Shown piece after piece: positions 34,330-53,291 of a stretch of DNA of 64,000 bases. The notes beneath the pieces are model-generated. The model was given only the letters and a program-made list of their open reading frames with translations. It searched no databases and was not told the DNA's origin. A program made the translations under genes and the position numbers. Positions within the stretch are counted from its first letter, which is position 1; every line of letters begins with the position of its first letter. The stretch is from a virus. The stretch covers positions 32,001 through 96,000 of IMG/VR virus record IMGVR_UViG_3300044959_000303; one strand, given 5' to 3'.

Positions 34330-35709
34330 ATGTCGGACAACAGATTCGATCTTTCGTATTTCTACGACGGTCAGATAAGAAGAATGAACATTCAGTTCAC
34401 TCGAATTTTTACAAATTTTCATTATTCGATTGGAAAAAATCGAAACGGCGAGCCTTTGTTGAGAAGAGTTCCAGCGAGATATGCTTCGACAAATCGGCAG
34501 GTTGCTTATGTTCTGAGAAACAATTCGGAAAACGTGATGTTGTCCGTACCAATGTTCACCGTATATCTGACAGGTCTGACATATGACAGAAATCGAGTGC
34601 AGGATCCTCTCTTTTCGGAAAAAATTCGCTTCAACGAAAAAAAATTCGATTCGATTTCCGGTGAGTTCATTCAAGAACCGGGACAAAGATTCACTGTCGA
34701 AAGATACATGCCAGTTCCTTACACGATGAGATGGAACGTGGATTTGTGGGTGAGCAACGAAAGCCAGAAAGAACAGTTGGTGGAACAGATAATAGTTCTT
34801 TTCAATCCTTCCATACAATTGCAATTCACCGAAAATCCTCTGGATTGGACAAGCCTGACAGAATTGACTCTGGAAGAAATCAACTGGAGTAACAATTCGA
34901 TTCCGATAGGAACGGGTGGTGAAATAGAAATCATAACCTTTACGTTTTCCGCTCCGGTATGGATAAATCCGCCAGCAATAGTCGAAAGACAGAAAATAAT
35001 AAAAACAATCATTACAAATGTTCTGGAAGCAGAAAAATACGAAGATTACGAAACAGAAGCAAGTTACGGTGTACAGTTCGACAAAATCGATCTGTTGAGC
35101 AGAACGGTGACAACTTTCAATGATCATACAATCGTGATAAATCAGAATGTCGTAAAATTGACAGGTCCGGGAGGAATCGAAGTCAATGAGAATGGCAAAC
35201 CGTTTTCTTGGAAAACAATCTTTTCGAAATGCGGAGGTTTTCGTCCCGGAATTACACAACTTGTGATCAATCCGACCGACAATATCGAAGACGAAGAACA
35301 TTTGATTTCTGGTATACTCGATTATGGTTCGAGTGAAAATGAACTTTTGTGGTTTCCAAATCCATCTACACTTCCATTGAATACCATTCGGGAAATAAAT
35401 GCCATCATAGATCCTGTGAAAACTTTTCCCGAAAGAGGTCTTTCGATTCCAGTGATCGGAACCAGATATCTTTTATTGTCAGATATAGGAAATTCCATTG
35501 CCTGGGGAAACATTCAGGCAAAAAAACATGAAATAATAGAATGGGACGGATCGAAATGGGTTGTCGCATTCAATGTAGAACTGGAGAAAGAAAAAATTCA
35601 TTATGTCAAGAATCTCTATGACAACAATCAATTGATATGGAATGGAAAGGAATGGAAATATCTTGTGAATGGATTGTATGAACAAGGTTTCTGGAGAATT
35701 ATTCTGTAA
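34330..35709 (+). CDS. tail terminator / sheath stabilizer (gp15-like)
   Basis: YFYDGQIRR, VERYMPVPY, QKEQLVEQI.VLFNPS, DWTSL, PVWINPPA motifs. Confidence 0.8.
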   Translation: MSDNRFDLSYFYDGQIRRMNIQFTRIFTNFHYSIGKNRNGEPLLRRVPARYASTNRQVAYVLRNNSENVMLSVPMFTVYLTGLTYDRNRVQDPLFSEKIRFNEKKFDSISGEFIQEPGQRFTVERYMPVPYTMRWNVDLWVSNESQKEQLVEQIIVLFNPSIQLQFTENPLDWTSLTELTLEEINWSNNSIPIGTGGEIEIITFTFSAPVWINPPAIVERQKIIKTIITNVLEAEKYEDYETEASYGVQFDKIDLLSRTVTTFNDHTIVINQNVVKLTGPGGIEVNENGKPFSWKTIFSKCGGFRPGITQLVINPTDNIEDEEHLISGILDYGSSENELLWFPNPSTLPLNTIREINAIIDPVKTFPERGLSIPVIGTRYLLLSDIGNSIAWGNIQAKKHEIIEWDGSKWVVAFNVELEKEKIHYVKNLYDNNQLIWNGKEWKYLVNGLYEQGFWRIIL

Positions 35710-35743
35710 AAAAGAAAAAAGCTGCCCGATACCGGGCAGCTTT
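35707..35743 (-). terminator. intrinsic terminator closing the hfa-like operon (possibly bidirectional)
   Basis: aaagctgcccg-atac-cgggcagcttt with long T-tract on the minus strand. Confidence 0.85.
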
Positions 35744-35783
35744 GAAAAAAGTTGCAATTTTTTCGATCTGTTTTACGATCTTG

Positions 35784-36377
35784 TCATGGTCGCACAACAG
35801 TGTTGTTCAGATTGATGTTGTTGCCAACGGCAGTAGCATTGACTTCGATGTTGCCACGAACGACGTTGTTACGAACTTCGGCAACGGCAGTGACATTGCT
35901 TCCGACAACAGCCTGACCAAGATTTCCAAGACGATTGTTGGTTCCATTCAGATTGACATTGTTACCGACAGATGTTGCTTCCACAGTAAGTGGACCATTG
36001 AGATTGCTGTTGGTAACCAAAGAAAATGACTGAACGTTGCTGAACAACACCGCCTGATTTACCGCATCGTTATTCAGAACTCTGACATTTTCACCAGCAA
36101 GATTGTTTCCAACAGCAGTCGAACGAACTTCCGGGTCGGAAGTATTCGAAACATTGGCAATGACAGCTGTTGCGGTTACATTGCTGTTTTTGACCAACTG
36201 ACCATTGATATCGACATTCACATTCACTTCGATGTTGTCGATCTCGTTCAAATAACGACAATCGATACTGGTGCCCGGGTGTGTCAGATCACAACTCGTG
36301 GCATGTCCAGTACTTGCAAAAGTCAGAAGACCAATTGCAGTTGCGATGGAAGCAAGATAACGAATACTGACAGTCAT
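35784..36377 (-). CDS. exported N/V-rich repeat protein, HfaD/curlin-like putative amyloid subunit
   Basis: Sec signal peptide (..FASTGHA), three Q-x4-SNV...(A/S)T(A/S)VGNN repeats, strong AAGGAGG RBS, downstream of the CsgG/HfaB gene. Confidence 0.72.
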   Translation of the reverse strand: MTVSIRYLASIATAIGLLTFASTGHATSCDLTHPGTSIDCRYLNEIDNIEVNVNVDINGQLVKNSNVTATAVIANVSNTSDPEVRSTAVGNNLAGENVRVLNNDAVNQAVLFSNVQSFSLVTNSNLNGPLTVEATSVGNNVNLNGTNNRLGNLGQAVVGSNVTAVAEVRNNVVRGNIEVNATAVGNNINLNNTVVRP

Positions 36378-36526
36378 GTTTTCCTCCTTTGGTTGTCAGT
36401 TCTGATTCATATTGGTAAATTGCATCAATTTACCAATACTTCCGGAGAATCCGGCATGACTTCCCGATAACCAGAAATCGGTAGGCCCAGTTTTTGAATT
36501 GGATTGGCAGCCAATATTCGAAAAAC

Positions 36527-37414
36527 TCATTGCATACCAAAAATTCGTACGCGATCACTTTCAATGTTTCTGTCCACATACCTTTTGTATCCTCCCGGAT
36601 ACAATTCGGTATTTTCGTATCTGTTCAGATAAATGATATCATTGTTGTTGCAATTCAACTCTATTCCATAGATATCGGCCAGCAACAACGCCACCGAAGT
36701 TTCTATCACATCTCTCACACCAACATTCAGAGGTTCCTGAACCTTGAAACCACTGTTCACATCGATGAGTACATTTCCGAAAAAGGAGAAAATACCACTT
36801 TTCACCTCTTTTCCGGTAATTCTTTTTTTCAGGGAAATTGCCTTTACGATTTCAGTGGTTCGAGTGTTGACAACTCTGAAATCTGCTGCAATTTCCATTA
36901 TATATTCTCTTGTTCCACCACCGATTCCGTTGATATAGAATTCAGAGCCACCAGAAATCAGATAATTGATTTCTGTAATACCACCTGCAATATAATAATC
37001 CGAACCCAGAACCTGTCCGGGAAAAATTTTTCTATATCCCGGTTCGTCATCACCAAGAACCTTGTTGTTCGAGAGATTGAGTTCGACATCGAATACGGAA
37101 CGATCGATTCTTTCCACAACTCGAACAACATTTGTTTTTGCCAAAGCAGTCGTAACCATATGTGAAATACCGGAAGAAACCTTTTTTCCATCTACCAGAG
37201 AAATTTTACCGCTGTAATCATCTACATTTCCGACGGAAATTGTAATCACACCTTTGTTGTTTTTCAAGGAATTCAGTGCTTTCGACTCGAAACATTTCAG
37301 ATAATTCTGATATTCCGTGACGTTTTGTTCTACCGGATATCTGTTCAAGGTAGTAACAGAACATCCAGACAGTAAACTTGCCAGAAAAATCGCAGAAAAA
37401 AGTTTCTTTTTCAT
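36527..37414 (-). CDS. hfaB: CsgG/HfaB-family outer-membrane lipoprotein secretion channel
   Basis: Lipobox LLSGC; ISVGNVDDYSGK, MVTTALAK, VVER, YRKIFPGQVLGSDYYIAGGITEINY, DFRVVNTRT.EIV, QEPL..GVR..IE motifs. Confidence 0.87.
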   Translation of the reverse strand: MKKKLFSAIFLASLLSGCSVTTLNRYPVEQNVTEYQNYLKCFESKALNSLKNNKGVITISVGNVDDYSGKISLVDGKKVSSGISHMVTTALAKTNVVRVVERIDRSVFDVELNLSNNKVLGDDEPGYRKIFPGQVLGSDYYIAGGITEINYLISGGSEFYINGIGGGTREYIMEIAADFRVVNTRTTEIVKAISLKKRITGKEVKSGIFSFFGNVLIDVNSGFKVQEPLNVGVRDVIETSVALLLADIYGIELNCNNNDIIYLNRYENTELYPGGYKRYVDRNIESDRVRIFGMQ

Positions 37415-37427
37415 GATATGATTTCCG

Positions 37428-37802
37428 TCAATAATTGATGCTTCCGTTCAATTCTGTTTCAATATTACTGTCTTCTATTTCTTGTGTCAAGTTGAAATTT
37501 GGATTGTTCGAAATCGTTCCGTTTCTATTGTGAAGAGAAATATTACTGTTTGTTATGTTTCCCACAGTACCGCCGTAAATTGAAATTCCACCATGAGGAA
37601 TATTGCTACCATTCGAATTTTTTTCGAACATGTTTCCTTTTTTCATTTCAATTGCCGTGGCTTGATTGACAAGATCTTCGAGTTTTCTTTCCCGAAAATT
37701 CCAAATGTCATTCTGTCCAAATTCTGCATGTGCAGAATAGTTGAAAATAATGATCGAAAAACCTGAAAACAATGTAATCAGATGTTTTCTCATGATTTTC
37801 AT
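37428..37802 (-). CDS. small exported N/G-rich protein, HfaA-like
   Basis: Signal peptide (..YSAHA), GGTVGN and terminal ELNGSINY; directly upstream of hfaB-like gene as in hfaABD. Confidence 0.5.
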   Translation of the reverse strand: MKIMRKHLITLFSGFSIIIFNYSAHAEFGQNDIWNFRERKLEDLVNQATAIEMKKGNMFEKNSNGSNIPHGGISIYGGTVGNITNSNISLHNRNGTISNNPNFNLTQEIEDSNIETELNGSINY

Positions 37803-37816
37803 TCCTCCATTGTTTT

Positions 37817-38452
37817 TTATCTTGGTCCTACACTGCTCATATCTGGTCCGATACTGTCAGTATTTGCTCCGATACTGCCATTGTCCGGTCCAATTCCATC
37901 ATTCACACCATCTTTACCGTTTTTTCCATCCTTACCATTTTCATTGTCTTTTCCATTGTTGTCATTTCTGGAATTGTTGGAATTGTCATTATACTCGTCA
38001 GTGAAACAAAGAGTTATCTTTTTTTCTTCATCTTTTTCACAGATCTGTTGATTCATGACAATTTCTTTTTCTTTTCTTCGAATTTCGATAAACACGAATT
38101 CTTTTTCAGAACTTTTTTTGGCAATTTCGATTCTTTTTCCACTTTTGTCAAAAGAAGATATATTTTCAGAAAAATAAGTGTTTTCCAATTTCTGTCTTTC
38201 CCTTTCTTTGTTCAAAATATGACTTTTGATGAAATTCAAGGAATAGCATTCCTGATTTGGTTCGGGTTCATCATATTCTTTCGGCCAAAGATAACATTCA
38301 TCTTTCGAATTTTCGATTTTGTGTTCTGTTTCCGAAAACATGAAAATTTTTTGATTGTCTAAAAATCTTTTGGATTCGAAATTGACATGATATACATAAG
38401 AGCAAGAAGTCGAAAGAAAAGAAGCAAGAACGACAAAAGAAAATTTTTTCAT
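37817..38452 (-). CDS. putative exported (lipo)protein with N/D/G low-complexity tail
   Basis: MKKFSFVVLASFLSTSC signal (imperfect lipobox); C-x10-C-FTDEYND motif; GKD/IGPD repeats. Confidence 0.65.
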   Translation of the reverse strand: MKKFSFVVLASFLSTSCSYVYHVNFESKRFLDNQKIFMFSETEHKIENSKDECYLWPKEYDEPEPNQECYSLNFIKSHILNKERERQKLENTYFSENISSFDKSGKRIEIAKKSSEKEFVFIEIRRKEKEIVMNQQICEKDEEKKITLCFTDEYNDNSNNSRNDNNGKDNENGKDGKNGKDGVNDGIGPDNGSIGANTDSIGPDMSSVGPR

Positions 38453-38491
38453 AAATTGTCTCCATTTTTTCGAAATTTCAAGTCAAATGAT

Positions 38492-38519
38492 ATTTTACAT
38501 ACGAAATCGAAATTGTCAA
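38492..38519 (-). promoter_or_regulatory. sigma70-type promoter of the hfa-like operon
   Basis: TTGACA-16 nt-TAAAAT, about 40 nt upstream of ATG 38452. Confidence 0.65.
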
Positions 38520-38578
38520 TTTTTATTTTAATTTTTATTTACCAAAAAAGTTCATATCGATCATATGTAAACCGAAAT

Positions 38579-38618
38579 TAAAAAAAAAATAATCCGGTTG
38601 AACAGGTTCAACCGGATT
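38579..38618 (-). terminator. intrinsic terminator after the acidic repeat gene
   Basis: aatccggttgaa-cagg-ttcaaccggatt with long T-run on the minus strand. Confidence 0.8.
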
Positions 38619-38703
38619 GAATTTGTTCAAGTTACTTTTTCAATTTTTATCTTGTTCTTGTCATTTTTACTTTATCCAGATTTTGGTTTACATTACCAGA
38701 AAC

Positions 38704-39354
38704 TTAGCCATCCGAATCACCGACATCCGAATCACCGGCATCCGAATCACCGACATCCGAATCACCGACATCCGAATCACCGACATCCGAATCACCGACA
38801 TCCGAATCACCGACATCCGAATCACCGGCACCCGGTTCATCAGCAACCGGTTCATCAGCAACCGGTTCATCAGCAACCGGTTCATCAGCACCCGGTTTAT
38901 CAGCAACCGGTTCATCAGCACCCGGTTCATCAGCAACCGGTTCATCAGCACCCGGTTTATCAGCAACCGGTTCATCAGCACCCGGTTCATCAGCAACCGG
39001 TTCATCAGCACCCGGTTCATCAGCAACCGGTTCATCAGCACCCGGTTCATCAGCACCCGGTTCATCAGCAACCGGTTCATCAGCACCCGGTTCATCAGCA
39101 ACCGGTTCATCAGCACCCGGTTCATCAGCAACCGGATCGATTGGATCATCCACTCTCATGAAGTAGTTAGGTTGTTCACTATCATTATATTCATCGACAT
39201 AACAAATGGATTTTCCTCTGTCACTTTCATCATCGCAAACAAAAGTTTCCCGAACGCTGGAAACTCTTCTGTTTTCTGCGTTGACATCAGATGAATAAGA
39301 AAACACAGTCAAAAGAAGACCACTGACAATAAACATTGGTACTTTTTTCATCAC
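38704..39354 (-). CDS. exported highly acidic pentapeptide-repeat protein
   Basis: Signal peptide (..SSDVNA), C-x10-C-YVDEYND, then 20 x P(V/G)AD(E/K) and 8 x GDSD(V/A/G); GG-rich RBS upstream of GTG. Confidence 0.8.
38707..39135. repeat. two adjacent 15-bp tandem arrays (coding)
   Basis: catccgaatcaccga-type x8 and ccggttcatcagcaa/c-type x20. Confidence 0.95.
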
Positions 39355-39402
39355 CTTGCCCCTTTCCTTTGGTCTTGTTCGAATTCATTGCTGAATTCGA
39401 GA

Positions 39403-40440
39403 TCATATTAAATCCAAAAAACAGACTTTGTCAACAAAATTTTTCGACCTTTTTTTCGAATTTCTTCGTATATCTTCGTTTACCATCATTCGAACAAGTT
39501 CGTCGAAAGAAACTTTTGGCGACCAACCAAGTTTTTCTTTGGCTTTCTTCGGATTGCCTCTCAGATATGGTACTTCCGCGGGACGCATATGAAGAGGATT
39601 GATTTTGACATAGGAAACATAATCTTCCCGGCGTTTTGTCAAACCGGAAAACAAAAAGGCTTTTTCCAGAAATTCACGTAAACTGTGAGACTCTCCGGTC
39701 GCAATAACGTAATCTTCCGGTGTCGATTGCTGTAACATCAACCACATTGCTTCGACAAAATCCCCCGCATATCCCCAATCTCGATAAACATCGAGATTTC
39801 CAAGTTCGATGAATTTCTGTTCTCCAGAAATTATTCTTGCAATTCCGTTTGTGATTTTTCTCGTGACAAATTCTTTTCCTCGAAGTGGAGATTCATGATT
39901 CATGAGTATTCCGGAACAGGCGAAAATACCATAAGATTCCCTGTAGTTCACCGTTATCCAATGAGCTGCCAGCTTCGAAACTCCATATGGCGAACGGGGA
40001 TGAAAAGGAGTATTTTCGTCTTGAGTCTTGTTACTGTTCAGAGAAATACCGAACATTTCCGATGTGGATGCCTGATAGAATCTGCTTTTCGGACTATTGG
40101 AAATTATCGCTTCCAGAATGTTCAATGCTCCCATGAAATTCGTTTCCAAAGTATACTTTGGATTTTCCCACGATATTCCGACAAAGGATTGTGCAGCCAG
40201 ATTGTAAACTTCATTTGGTTTGATCTGTTTCATGATTTTCATGATGGAAATTTCGTCGGTAACATCACCAACAAGATATTCGATTTCGTTTGTTATACCG
40301 AAATAATCCAGATTTTCGAAATTCGGGTTACTTTTTCTTCTTACCAGACCGTAAATTCTGTAATCTTTTTCCAGAAGAAATTTCGAAAGATAAGCGCCAT
40401 CCTGACCAAGAATTCCGGTAATGAAAGCTGTTCTTTTCAC
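39403..40440 (-). CDS. gmd: GDP-mannose 4,6-dehydratase
   Basis: ITGILGQDGAYL, YNLAAQSFV, YQASTSEMFG, PRSPYGVSK, NHESPLRG.EFVTRKIT, LGNLD..RDWGYA. Confidence 0.95.
   Translation of the reverse strand: MKRTAFITGILGQDGAYLSKFLLEKDYRIYGLVRRKSNPNFENLDYFGITNEIEYLVGDVTDEISIMKIMKQIKPNEVYNLAAQSFVGISWENPKYTLETNFMGALNILEAIISNSPKSRFYQASTSEMFGISLNSNKTQDENTPFHPRSPYGVSKLAAHWITVNYRESYGIFACSGILMNHESPLRGKEFVTRKITNGIARIISGEQKFIELGNLDVYRDWGYAGDFVEAMWLMLQQSTPEDYVIATGESHSLREFLEKAFLFSGLTKRREDYVSYVKINPLHMRPAEVPYLRGNPKKAKEKLGWSPKVSFDELVRMMVNEDIRRNSKKRSKNFVDKVCFLDLI
39405..39434 (-). promoter_or_regulatory. possible sigma70-type promoter for 38704..39354
   Basis: TTGACA-18 nt-TAATAT within the end of gmd. Confidence 0.45.
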
Positions 40441-40509
40441 TTTTTTTCCCCCGAGATACCGAAAAACATTATAGTGAACGAAAATTGAAAATTCAATTTT
40501 CGCAAAAAA

Positions 40510-40908
40510 TCATCTTACAAGAAGAATCTTGTTTATGATTCCCAAAGAACTCCACTCTTCTCTGGGAGGAACGACGGACAGATTGCTTCTGTCGAATTTT
40601 GCCCGAAACCACAGAAAATTGCCTTCGATATTGAAAATGAACGTATCGGTAATTCCTTCGTTCAAGGGTGCATTGAAAATCAATTCGGGCCGATCGATGT
40701 TCAACCATATCGGAAACCAATCGTCTTCTTTCGGATTTCTTGCCAACGATGCTTCCAGAGTTATTGTTCCTATGTATTTCGAAATTGTTATCTGTACGGT
40801 ATGAATCGGGTTGAAAGCACCGAACCAGGCGTTTCCTTTTCTGGGTTCTCCGACTCCTTCCAGTTGTCCGGTAGTATTTGTCAAAAGTAATTCGATTCTC
40901 GATGTCAT
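40510..40908 (-). CDS. putative virion structural protein
   Basis: HTVQI....YIG.I.LEASL..P..DDWF and GNFLWFRA motifs; CATAAATA at 40937-40944. Confidence 0.65.
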   Translation of the reverse strand: MTSRIELLLTNTTGQLEGVGEPRKGNAWFGAFNPIHTVQITISKYIGTITLEASLARNPKEDDWFPIWLNIDRPELIFNAPLNEGITDTFIFNIEGNFLWFRAKFDRSNLSVVPPREEWSSLGIINKILLVR

Positions 40909-44600: not shown

Positions 44601-44742
44601 TTTTCATAATTCCTCGTTCTGTTTCGATATTATTTATGGTAAACGAACAAGTTCGAACGTTTTGAATATTTATGATTCTATTTATTTCATACGTATTTTC
44701 AAGATTCGAATTTTTCGGAAATTTTTCGAAATCGCAAAAGAA

Positions 44743-53215: not shown

Positions 53216-53291
<76 letters not shown>

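Follow-up and report, generated by a model that had tools for sequence, protein, structure and literature searches.

In Caulobacter, HfaA and HfaD of the holdfast anchor depend for their presence on the cell surface on HfaB, a CsgG-like outer-membrane protein, and at the surface both form multimers that resist SDS and heat (PMC6707917; bioRxiv 10.1101/2022.07.20.500906). HfaD is needed for the multimerisation of HfaA, and it is HfaA, not HfaD, that has been likened to CsgA (bioRxiv 10.1101/2022.07.20.500906; PMC6707917). HfaD itself was first compared with S-layer proteins and adhesins (PMC6707917). Related machinery of the curli type is known from phages: CsgG and CsgF occur in pelagimyophages (PMC7029224), a complete curli set that includes the CsgA/B fibre genes occurs in podoviruses and myoviruses among the pelagiphages (PMC9599517), and the pore of the Methylophilales phage Melnitz has been proposed to time lysis (PMC9004378). 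Such phage systems are abundant in the oceans and their purpose is debated, with sibling capture, superinfection defence, an import pore and lysis timing all under discussion (PMC7029224, PMC9599517, PMC9004378). The literature searched contained no paper on hfaB or hfaD in phages and none on paralogous anchor-like systems, and it reported no function for short HfaD paralogues.

The locus described here lies in a window of 64 kb (the whole stretch of DNA that was analysed), which is part of a 107-kb IMG/VR virus contig with a CheckV completeness estimate of 28%. Six minus-strand genes stand between a gene for a T4 gp15-like tail sheath stabiliser (Pfam E 1.6e-23) and the gene for a 1183-aa tail sheath, with a tail tube gene also among the flanking genes. 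The nearest relatives of this sheath are found in Sinorhizobium phage Phosso and Agrobacterium phage Atu_ph07, at 45-46% identity, and we therefore take the contig to be a fragment of an Atu_ph07-like jumbo myovirus; Atu_ph07 is itself a low-GC jumbo phage with a high-GC alphaproteobacterial host. The protein under study is absent from both of these related phages. Elsewhere in the window there is a single tRNA gene, for tRNA-Lys (CTT), at 53216-53291 (minus). By its sequence signals, the gene for the HfaD-like protein is the last of a four-gene operon that encodes, in order, a 211-aa lipoprotein, a 124-aa secreted protein, an HfaB/CsgG channel and the HfaD-like protein; the four are read as one operon because a promoter element precedes the 211-aa gene and a terminator-like hairpin follows the HfaD-like gene. 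The features of the locus are as follows.

35718-35743, minus strand: intrinsic terminator-like hairpin (11 bp, 7 GC) with a T-run, ending the operon
35784-36377, minus strand: HfaD-like gene, 197 aa (ORF, homologues P0001-P0004 with PF27277, hhalign)
35787-35915, minus strand: repeat 3, aa 155-197 (repeat alignment)
35916-36056, minus strand: repeat 2, aa 108-154 (repeat alignment)
36057-36200, minus strand: repeat 1, aa 60-107 (repeat alignment)
36237-36293, minus strand: two-Cys module C-x10-C-R-Y-L-N-E-I-D, aa 29-47 (Cys29 and Cys40)
36297-36377, minus strand: Sec-type signal peptide, aa 1-27 (by eye: basic N-terminus, hydrophobic core, site between GHA and T)
36378-36526, minus strand: structured spacer of 149 nt between the channel gene and the HfaD-like gene (RNA fold)
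36383-36389, minus strand: AAGGAGG ribosome-binding site, 5 nt upstream of the ATG
36527-37414, minus strand: HfaB/CsgG-family outer-membrane channel lipoprotein, 295 aa, lipobox LSGC (NF037935, Pfam CsgG, model)
37428-37802, minus strand: 124-aa secreted Asn/Gly-rich protein in the hfaA position, an orphan (no family match)
37817-38452, minus strand: 211-aa putative lipoprotein, first gene of the operon (ORF, C-x10-C-F-x-DEYND motif)
38492-38519, minus strand: sigma70-like promoter TTGACA-16-TAAAAT before the 211-aa gene (consensus match, 11 of 12)
38704-39354, minus strand: 216-aa exported acidic repeat protein with a Cys motif, a separate transcription unit upstream (ORF, motif, terminator 38591-38618)
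36237-36293, 37988-38041 and 39184-39237, minus strand: sites of the motif C-x10-C-(x)-[YF]-x-(D/N)E(Y/I)(N/D) in the HfaD-like, 211-aa and 216-aa proteins

An earlier note, made from the letters of the sequence, had described a signal peptide, a two-Cys segment and three aligned repeats in the 197-aa protein, and this architecture is borne out. The signal peptide was again judged by eye from the sequence (STGHA before the cleavage site, TS after it). Each of the three repeats is 43-48 aa long and follows the pattern Q-x4-SNV ... (A/S)T(A/S)VGNN, with the opening glutamine at Q60, Q108 and Q155, SNV at 65, 113 and 160, VGNN at 89, 137 and 184, and the endings (S/A)T(A/S)VGNN at aa 86-92, 134-140 and 181-187. 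Pairwise local scores among the three were 58, 72 and 95, and their sum of 225 compares with 89 +/- 10 for 1000 composition-preserving shuffles, the highest of which reached 133 (z = 13.4). The mature protein is rich in Asn (21%) and Val (17%) and poor in aromatic residues (F 1.2%, Y 0.6%, no Trp), in keeping with the same note's description of the repeats as N/V/T-rich with few aromatics. Both cysteines and the Q/N positions in all three repeats are retained in four homologues (95, 62, 58 and 45% identity), which indicates that the gene is real and under constraint. C29, C40, E45 and D47 are invariant across the phage subfamily, and the most conserved residues of the family (Q60, Q108, N91, N139 and N186) fall at the same position of each repeat. 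A stacked Q/N ladder would require just this, a conserved Gln at the start of each repeat and a conserved Asn in every GNN.

The kinship to HfaD that had been suspected is confirmed by profile comparison, whereas the claim that the subunit is new does not stand, since the protein sits in the Pfam family PF27277 and short HfaD paralogues already exist in Caulobacterales and other Alphaproteobacteria. Membership of PF27277, which Pfam 38.1 names HfaD (Atlas output), is indirect: it is read from the precomputed labels on P0001, a 95% identical protein that represents the 90% cluster of the window protein itself, and on P0002-P0004 and most of the distant relatives. In a large protein collection, four close and about 27 distant relatives were found, of 193-297 aa, nearly all of them with this label. 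The NCBIfam HfaD equivalog model NF037936 gave the window protein 13.3 bits (E 0.04) against a cut-off of 100 bits, and canonical Caulobacterales HfaD proteins score 124-385 bits, so the window protein is not an equivalog of canonical HfaD. With hhalign, an alignment of the phage subfamily (A1, phage sequences only) matched bacterial short HfaD at 98.7% (E 3.7e-16), bacterial short HfaD matched 14 canonical HfaD at 98.0% (E 2.7e-13), and the family alignment A3 matched the same number of canonical HfaD at 97.9% (E 3.8e-13). A1 aligned directly with canonical HfaD gave only 63% (E 7e-5), and reversed or column-shuffled controls gave 0.1-0.2%. Because this chain of profiles closes, from phage through bacterial short to canonical HfaD, the protein is, by sequence comparison, a short three-repeat member of the HfaD family, and neither a canonical HfaD equivalog nor a new family. 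Gene order and size can be added to this: the gene lies directly downstream of the HfaB-like gene, 149 nt away on the same strand, and with 197 aa and 3 repeats the protein is, as previously noted, about half the length of canonical HfaD, which has ~400 aa and about 8 repeats (6-10 A-x-GN motifs).

Other searches with the protein yielded little. A Pfam scan at E <= 0.1 did not match Curlin_rpt, and no PHROG was matched; a Pfam hit to FAD_oxidored (E 0.002, below cut-off) was dismissed as compositional. Nothing was found by tblastn of the HfaD-like protein in 50,697 phage records (E <= 0.01), by megablast of 12 kb against phages, by searching viral contigs with the HfaD-like protein, by searching metagenome contigs with A1, or by a PDB sequence search with the family profile.

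Bacterial genomes hold closely comparable genes. A genome scan showed in an Asticcacaulis MAG a locus with hfaB (359 bits), a 214-aa HfaD-like protein and hfaA (70 bits), and BLASTP of the window protein with that 214-aa protein gave 1e-7; the canonical hfaA-hfaB-hfaD locus of the same MAG, with an HfaD of 327 bits, lies elsewhere. Several Caulobacterales genomes likewise have second, sub-cut-off hfaA'-hfaB'-hfaD' loci apart from the canonical one, and Asticcacaulis has a third hfaB paralogue. An hfaB paralogue beside short HfaD-like and HfaA-like genes is found at 1350-7041 of L002 (Asticcacaulis MAG, contig 9), and similar paralogue loci are seen at G010:C5, G015:C1:366 kb, G020:C7, G028:C49, G030:C16 and G035:C79.

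In cultured phages, tblastn detected HfaB-like genes in CcrColossus, CcrPW and five Brevundimonas phages, where they are annotated as CsgG-like or hfaB, and the products are 37-45% identical to the HfaB-like protein of the window. The gene downstream of hfaB in CcrColossus and in Brevundimonas phage Kabachok is annotated as hypothetical, but its product matches the HfaD model NF037936 (E 1e-5 to 1e-7) and the window protein (BLASTP 3e-4). These genes are gp241-243 of CcrColossus (L004 4299-6663) and 01660-01640 of Kabachok (L003 4372-6977), and the small secreted protein encoded upstream of hfaB is 40% identical between the two phages.

The note had expected a stacked beta-solenoid from structure prediction, and the model agrees with this to the extent that it is all-beta and that its best, weak matches in the PDB are the FapC and CsgA fibrils. 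AlphaFold2, with a 28-sequence alignment as input, gave a mean pLDDT of 66.8; the N-terminal 59 residues are below 50, and aa 60-197 are all-beta with pLDDT 64-91. In a Foldseek search of the PDB, only the FapC amyloid fibril (9u4u) was matched significantly, at E 2.6e-4. VIA-align over 48,161 PDB representatives ranked FapC first (rmsd 4.0 A, 108 residues aligned) with a weak Z of 5.1, in a range that the structure-comparison tool itself calls common, and the CsgA fibril 8enq second, again weakly (Z 4.4); among the remaining matches, at Z 2-3.6, are many beta-helices. At such low Z the model supports the beta-solenoid class and a likeness to functional amyloids, and not more.

Immediately upstream, the 295-aa protein is matched by the NCBIfam HfaB model NF037935 (E 3.6e-61; 207 bits, below the 300-bit cut-off) and by Pfam CsgG (E 8e-19), and its AlphaFold2 model, which has two long beta-hairpins, matches CsgG 6l7a (Foldseek E 1.3e-15). 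It ends in a 45-aa extension (aa 251-295; 36527-36661, minus; modelled at pLDDT 25-37) seen in none of the bacterial or phiCbK-type HfaB proteins. In a tree the phage HfaB sits on a branch of 3.07 substitutions per site and joins phiCbK-like phages weakly (SH-aLRT 55); this grouping may be long-branch attraction, hence we claim no donor. A search of viral contigs with the HfaB-like protein alone found nothing, and an HfaB alignment found only CcrColossus and CcrPW. The 124-aa protein, which occupies the position of hfaA, had itself as sole match in a database search. On sequence grounds it was rejected as HfaA, with no NF037934 match in hmmscan at E <= 10 and 1.8% in hhalign against 12 HfaA proteins, and has only short motifs in common with them (G-x-x-VGN and a C-terminal LNGSIN). 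Against the small gene upstream of hfaB in CcrColossus and Kabachok it gave a weak hhalign score of 23.6, with shuffles at <= 16.4.

The 216-aa acidic protein further upstream contains at 38709-39135 two abutting 15-bp tandem arrays of 7.9 and 20.5 copies (98% and 92% matches), which encode its GDSD(V/A) and P(V/G)AD(E/K) repeats and are likely to vary in length. The island is headed by an intact GDP-mannose 4,6-dehydratase-like gene at 39403-40440 (minus; Epimerase family, E 2e-67). On the 107-kb fragment we found no glycosyltransferase family 2, no Wza-type exporter and no recognisable HfaA, HfaE, CsgF or holdfast (hfs) polysaccharide genes; CsgF (PF10614) was unmatched at E <= 1 on this contig, which represents ~28% of the genome, and FecR and adenylate cyclase were likewise not found.

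The signals for expression set this cassette apart from its neighbours. The sigma70-like promoter before the 211-aa gene belongs to a class of consensus matches that occur at about the chance rate (15 found, 13 expected), and a second sigma70-like element in the secretion cassette lies at 40468-40496. The T4-type late-promoter word ATAAATA does not occur within 35700-40600 and is present before the tube, p132 and sheath genes (33042, 40943 and 44637-44685, minus). These consensus matches, and only these, suggest that the cassette is read by the host polymerase, apart from the virion genes. The AAGGAGG ribosome-binding site that had been pointed out is in place, and the long leader ascribed to the HfaD-like gene corresponds to the 149-nt spacer downstream of the channel gene. 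This spacer is predicted to fold into a series of hairpins (-48.3 kcal/mol, z -3.2, none of 200 shuffles as stable) that includes a perfect 14-bp stem and whose last hairpin encloses the ribosome-binding site and the start codon; Rfam gave only sub-threshold noise and no match on the cassette, spacer included. Such a structure may regulate, through translation or processing, how the cargo is expressed relative to the pore.

A further trait may link the HfaD-like protein to its neighbours. In a six-frame translation of the window the Cys-motif pattern has exactly three matches, all of them in exported proteins of the cassette or next to it, a count to be read as a lead only, given that the pattern was written after the sequences were known. 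The motif is present in the phage-type homologues P0001-P0004 and absent from 27 bacterial-type (short HfaD) proteins, and is possibly a common docking or targeting hairpin. One may extend this to a display of several cargoes, in which the Cys hairpin, disulfide-bonded, would act in all three exported proteins as a docking or secretion tag for one HfaB platform. The cargoes would be the HfaD-like solenoid, the acidic PVADE/GDSD repeat protein and the NGKD-tailed lipoprotein, which are otherwise unrelated. We regard this extension as unlikely; if it were true, the phage would re-coat the infected cell with a self-assembled polyanionic fibre layer.

Since a shortened copy of HfaD adjoins the gene of its outer-membrane export channel, infected cells probably display a phage-made curli-like fibre or adhesin. 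The reading that we favour as a whole, with a probability of roughly 0.7, is that the short HfaD is exported via the co-encoded channel and forms a phage-made surface fibre or adhesin on the infected cell. Host RNA polymerase would transcribe the operon from the sigma70-like promoter, apart from the surrounding late tail genes. The HfaD-like protein, to judge from its signal peptide, would then cross the inner membrane via Sec and, as homology and gene linkage suggest, pass unfolded through the oligomeric HfaB/CsgG channel in the outer membrane. On the cell surface its three repeats are predicted to stack as beta-solenoid rungs, stabilised by the conserved Gln/Asn ladder, with open ends that would allow head-to-tail polymerisation or the docking of a partner, for which the 124-aa protein is a possibility. 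The infected cell would in this way come to display a fibre or adhesin made by the phage. Three benefits are candidates: host cells could aggregate around the burst ('sibling capture'), receptors could be closed to superinfecting phages, or a surface polysaccharide could be retained. The role of abundant major subunit that the note gave the protein is a candidate only; in Caulobacter the likeness to CsgA belongs to HfaA.

The same export route could also deliver a monomeric or capped beta-helix that acts at the surface as an adhesin or coat, masks receptors or binds a glycan and forms no amyloid-like polymers. It would remain one solenoid of three rungs, fixed to the outer membrane or to the other proteins of the cassette. 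Below the two leading fibrils, the structural hits are indeed ordinary non-amyloid beta-helices at similar Z (adhesins, tailspikes and ice-binding proteins), the original comparison of HfaD was with S-layer proteins and adhesins (PMC6707917), and the conserved N-terminal Cys module could cap or dock. Against this, the C-terminus follows right after repeat 3 with no capping element, and it is the FapC and CsgA fibrils that rank top in the exhaustive search; we consider a non-polymerising protein rather unlikely. The channel might instead be the functional part, for lysis timing or for small-molecule import or export, with the HfaD-like protein as an accessory plug, gate or regulator. A pore function of this sort has been proposed for phage CsgG pores that lack a cargo, such as the CsgGF of Melnitz (PMC9004378), and the position of the HfaD-like ribosome-binding site inside the spacer hairpin could uncouple its translation from that of the channel gene. 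However, a conserved repeat cargo, of the family exported by HfaB in bacteria, is present both here and in phiCbK-like phages, and no lysis genes adjoin the cassette, which makes this explanation very improbable.

Least credible of all is that the protein belongs to the virion, as a tail fibre or decoration protein, even though the gene lies between those for the gp15-like tail sheath stabiliser and the tail sheath and tailspikes are commonly beta-helices. Virions are assembled in the cytoplasm, whereas this protein has a Sec signal peptide and its operon also encodes two lipoproteins; moreover, the promoter is sigma70-like and not of the late type, no PHROG is matched, and the protein is absent from Atu_ph07 and Phosso.

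The locus reveals in phages a second branch of curli-type machinery, that of the HfaB/HfaD holdfast anchor, with a recognisable cargo. The unannotated HfaB/HfaD-like pair also occurs in cultured jumbo phages of Caulobacter and Brevundimonas; as these hosts are amenable to genetics, what phage-made surface fibres do is directly testable there. The three-repeat protein is in addition a minimal HfaD, and may suit a first structural and biophysical study of a family so far regarded as amyloid by inference only.

Among known systems, the HfaA-HfaB-HfaD anchor of Caulobacterales (with HfaE) resembles the phage locus in its channel family (HfaB), its repeat family (HfaD, Q...A-x-GN), the order small secreted protein, hfaB, hfaD, which the paralogous bacterial loci also have, and the export signals on all products. 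The phage differs in its N-terminal C-x10-C module, not seen in bacterial HfaD, in a small upstream protein that is not detectably HfaA, in having no HfaE or hfs genes on the fragment, in a GC content of 36% against 60-68% in the bacteria, and in the very long branch of its HfaB. Closest of all outside phage-like contigs are the short HfaD paralogues (about 215-230 aa, PF27277) of Caulobacterales, Micropepsaceae and other Alphaproteobacteria, which agree in the (A/S)T(A/S)VGNN ending of the repeats, in size and in an adjoining HfaB paralogue, but have 4 repeats (3 by motif count in P0013) and no Cys module. The Dolichocephalovirinae (CcrColossus, CcrPW and the Brevundimonas phages) have the same succession of a small secreted protein, HfaB and an HfaD-like protein; unlike the present phage, they are siphoviruses of high GC with hosts known to make holdfasts, and their HfaD-like proteins have 309-355 aa and lack the Cys module.

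FapC and CsgA are alike in their few imperfect Q/N-rich repeats, and both fibrils are the best matches of the predicted solenoid, yet identity in the structural alignments is only 18% and 9%, at low Z, and the phage protein has no sequence similarity to curlin repeats. The exporter of FapC in Pseudomonas is FapF, which differs from the HfaB/CsgG type. Finally, the type VIII modules of phages, those of pelagiphages and Melnitz, combine like this locus a phage-encoded CsgG-family pore with a repeat fibre cargo, and would equally give infected cells a surface-fibre function (PMC7029224, PMC9599517, PMC9004378). They comprise CsgG, CsgF, CsgA/B, FecR and adenylate cyclase, whereas here CsgF, FecR and the cyclase were not found, the pore belongs to the HfaB branch and the cargo is of the HfaD type and not a curlin. 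Curli secretion by phages has already been published, and to this the present locus adds a variant from a jumbo myovirus, in which the type VIII-like secretion is of the Hfa branch and the cargo, with its three repeats, is minimal.
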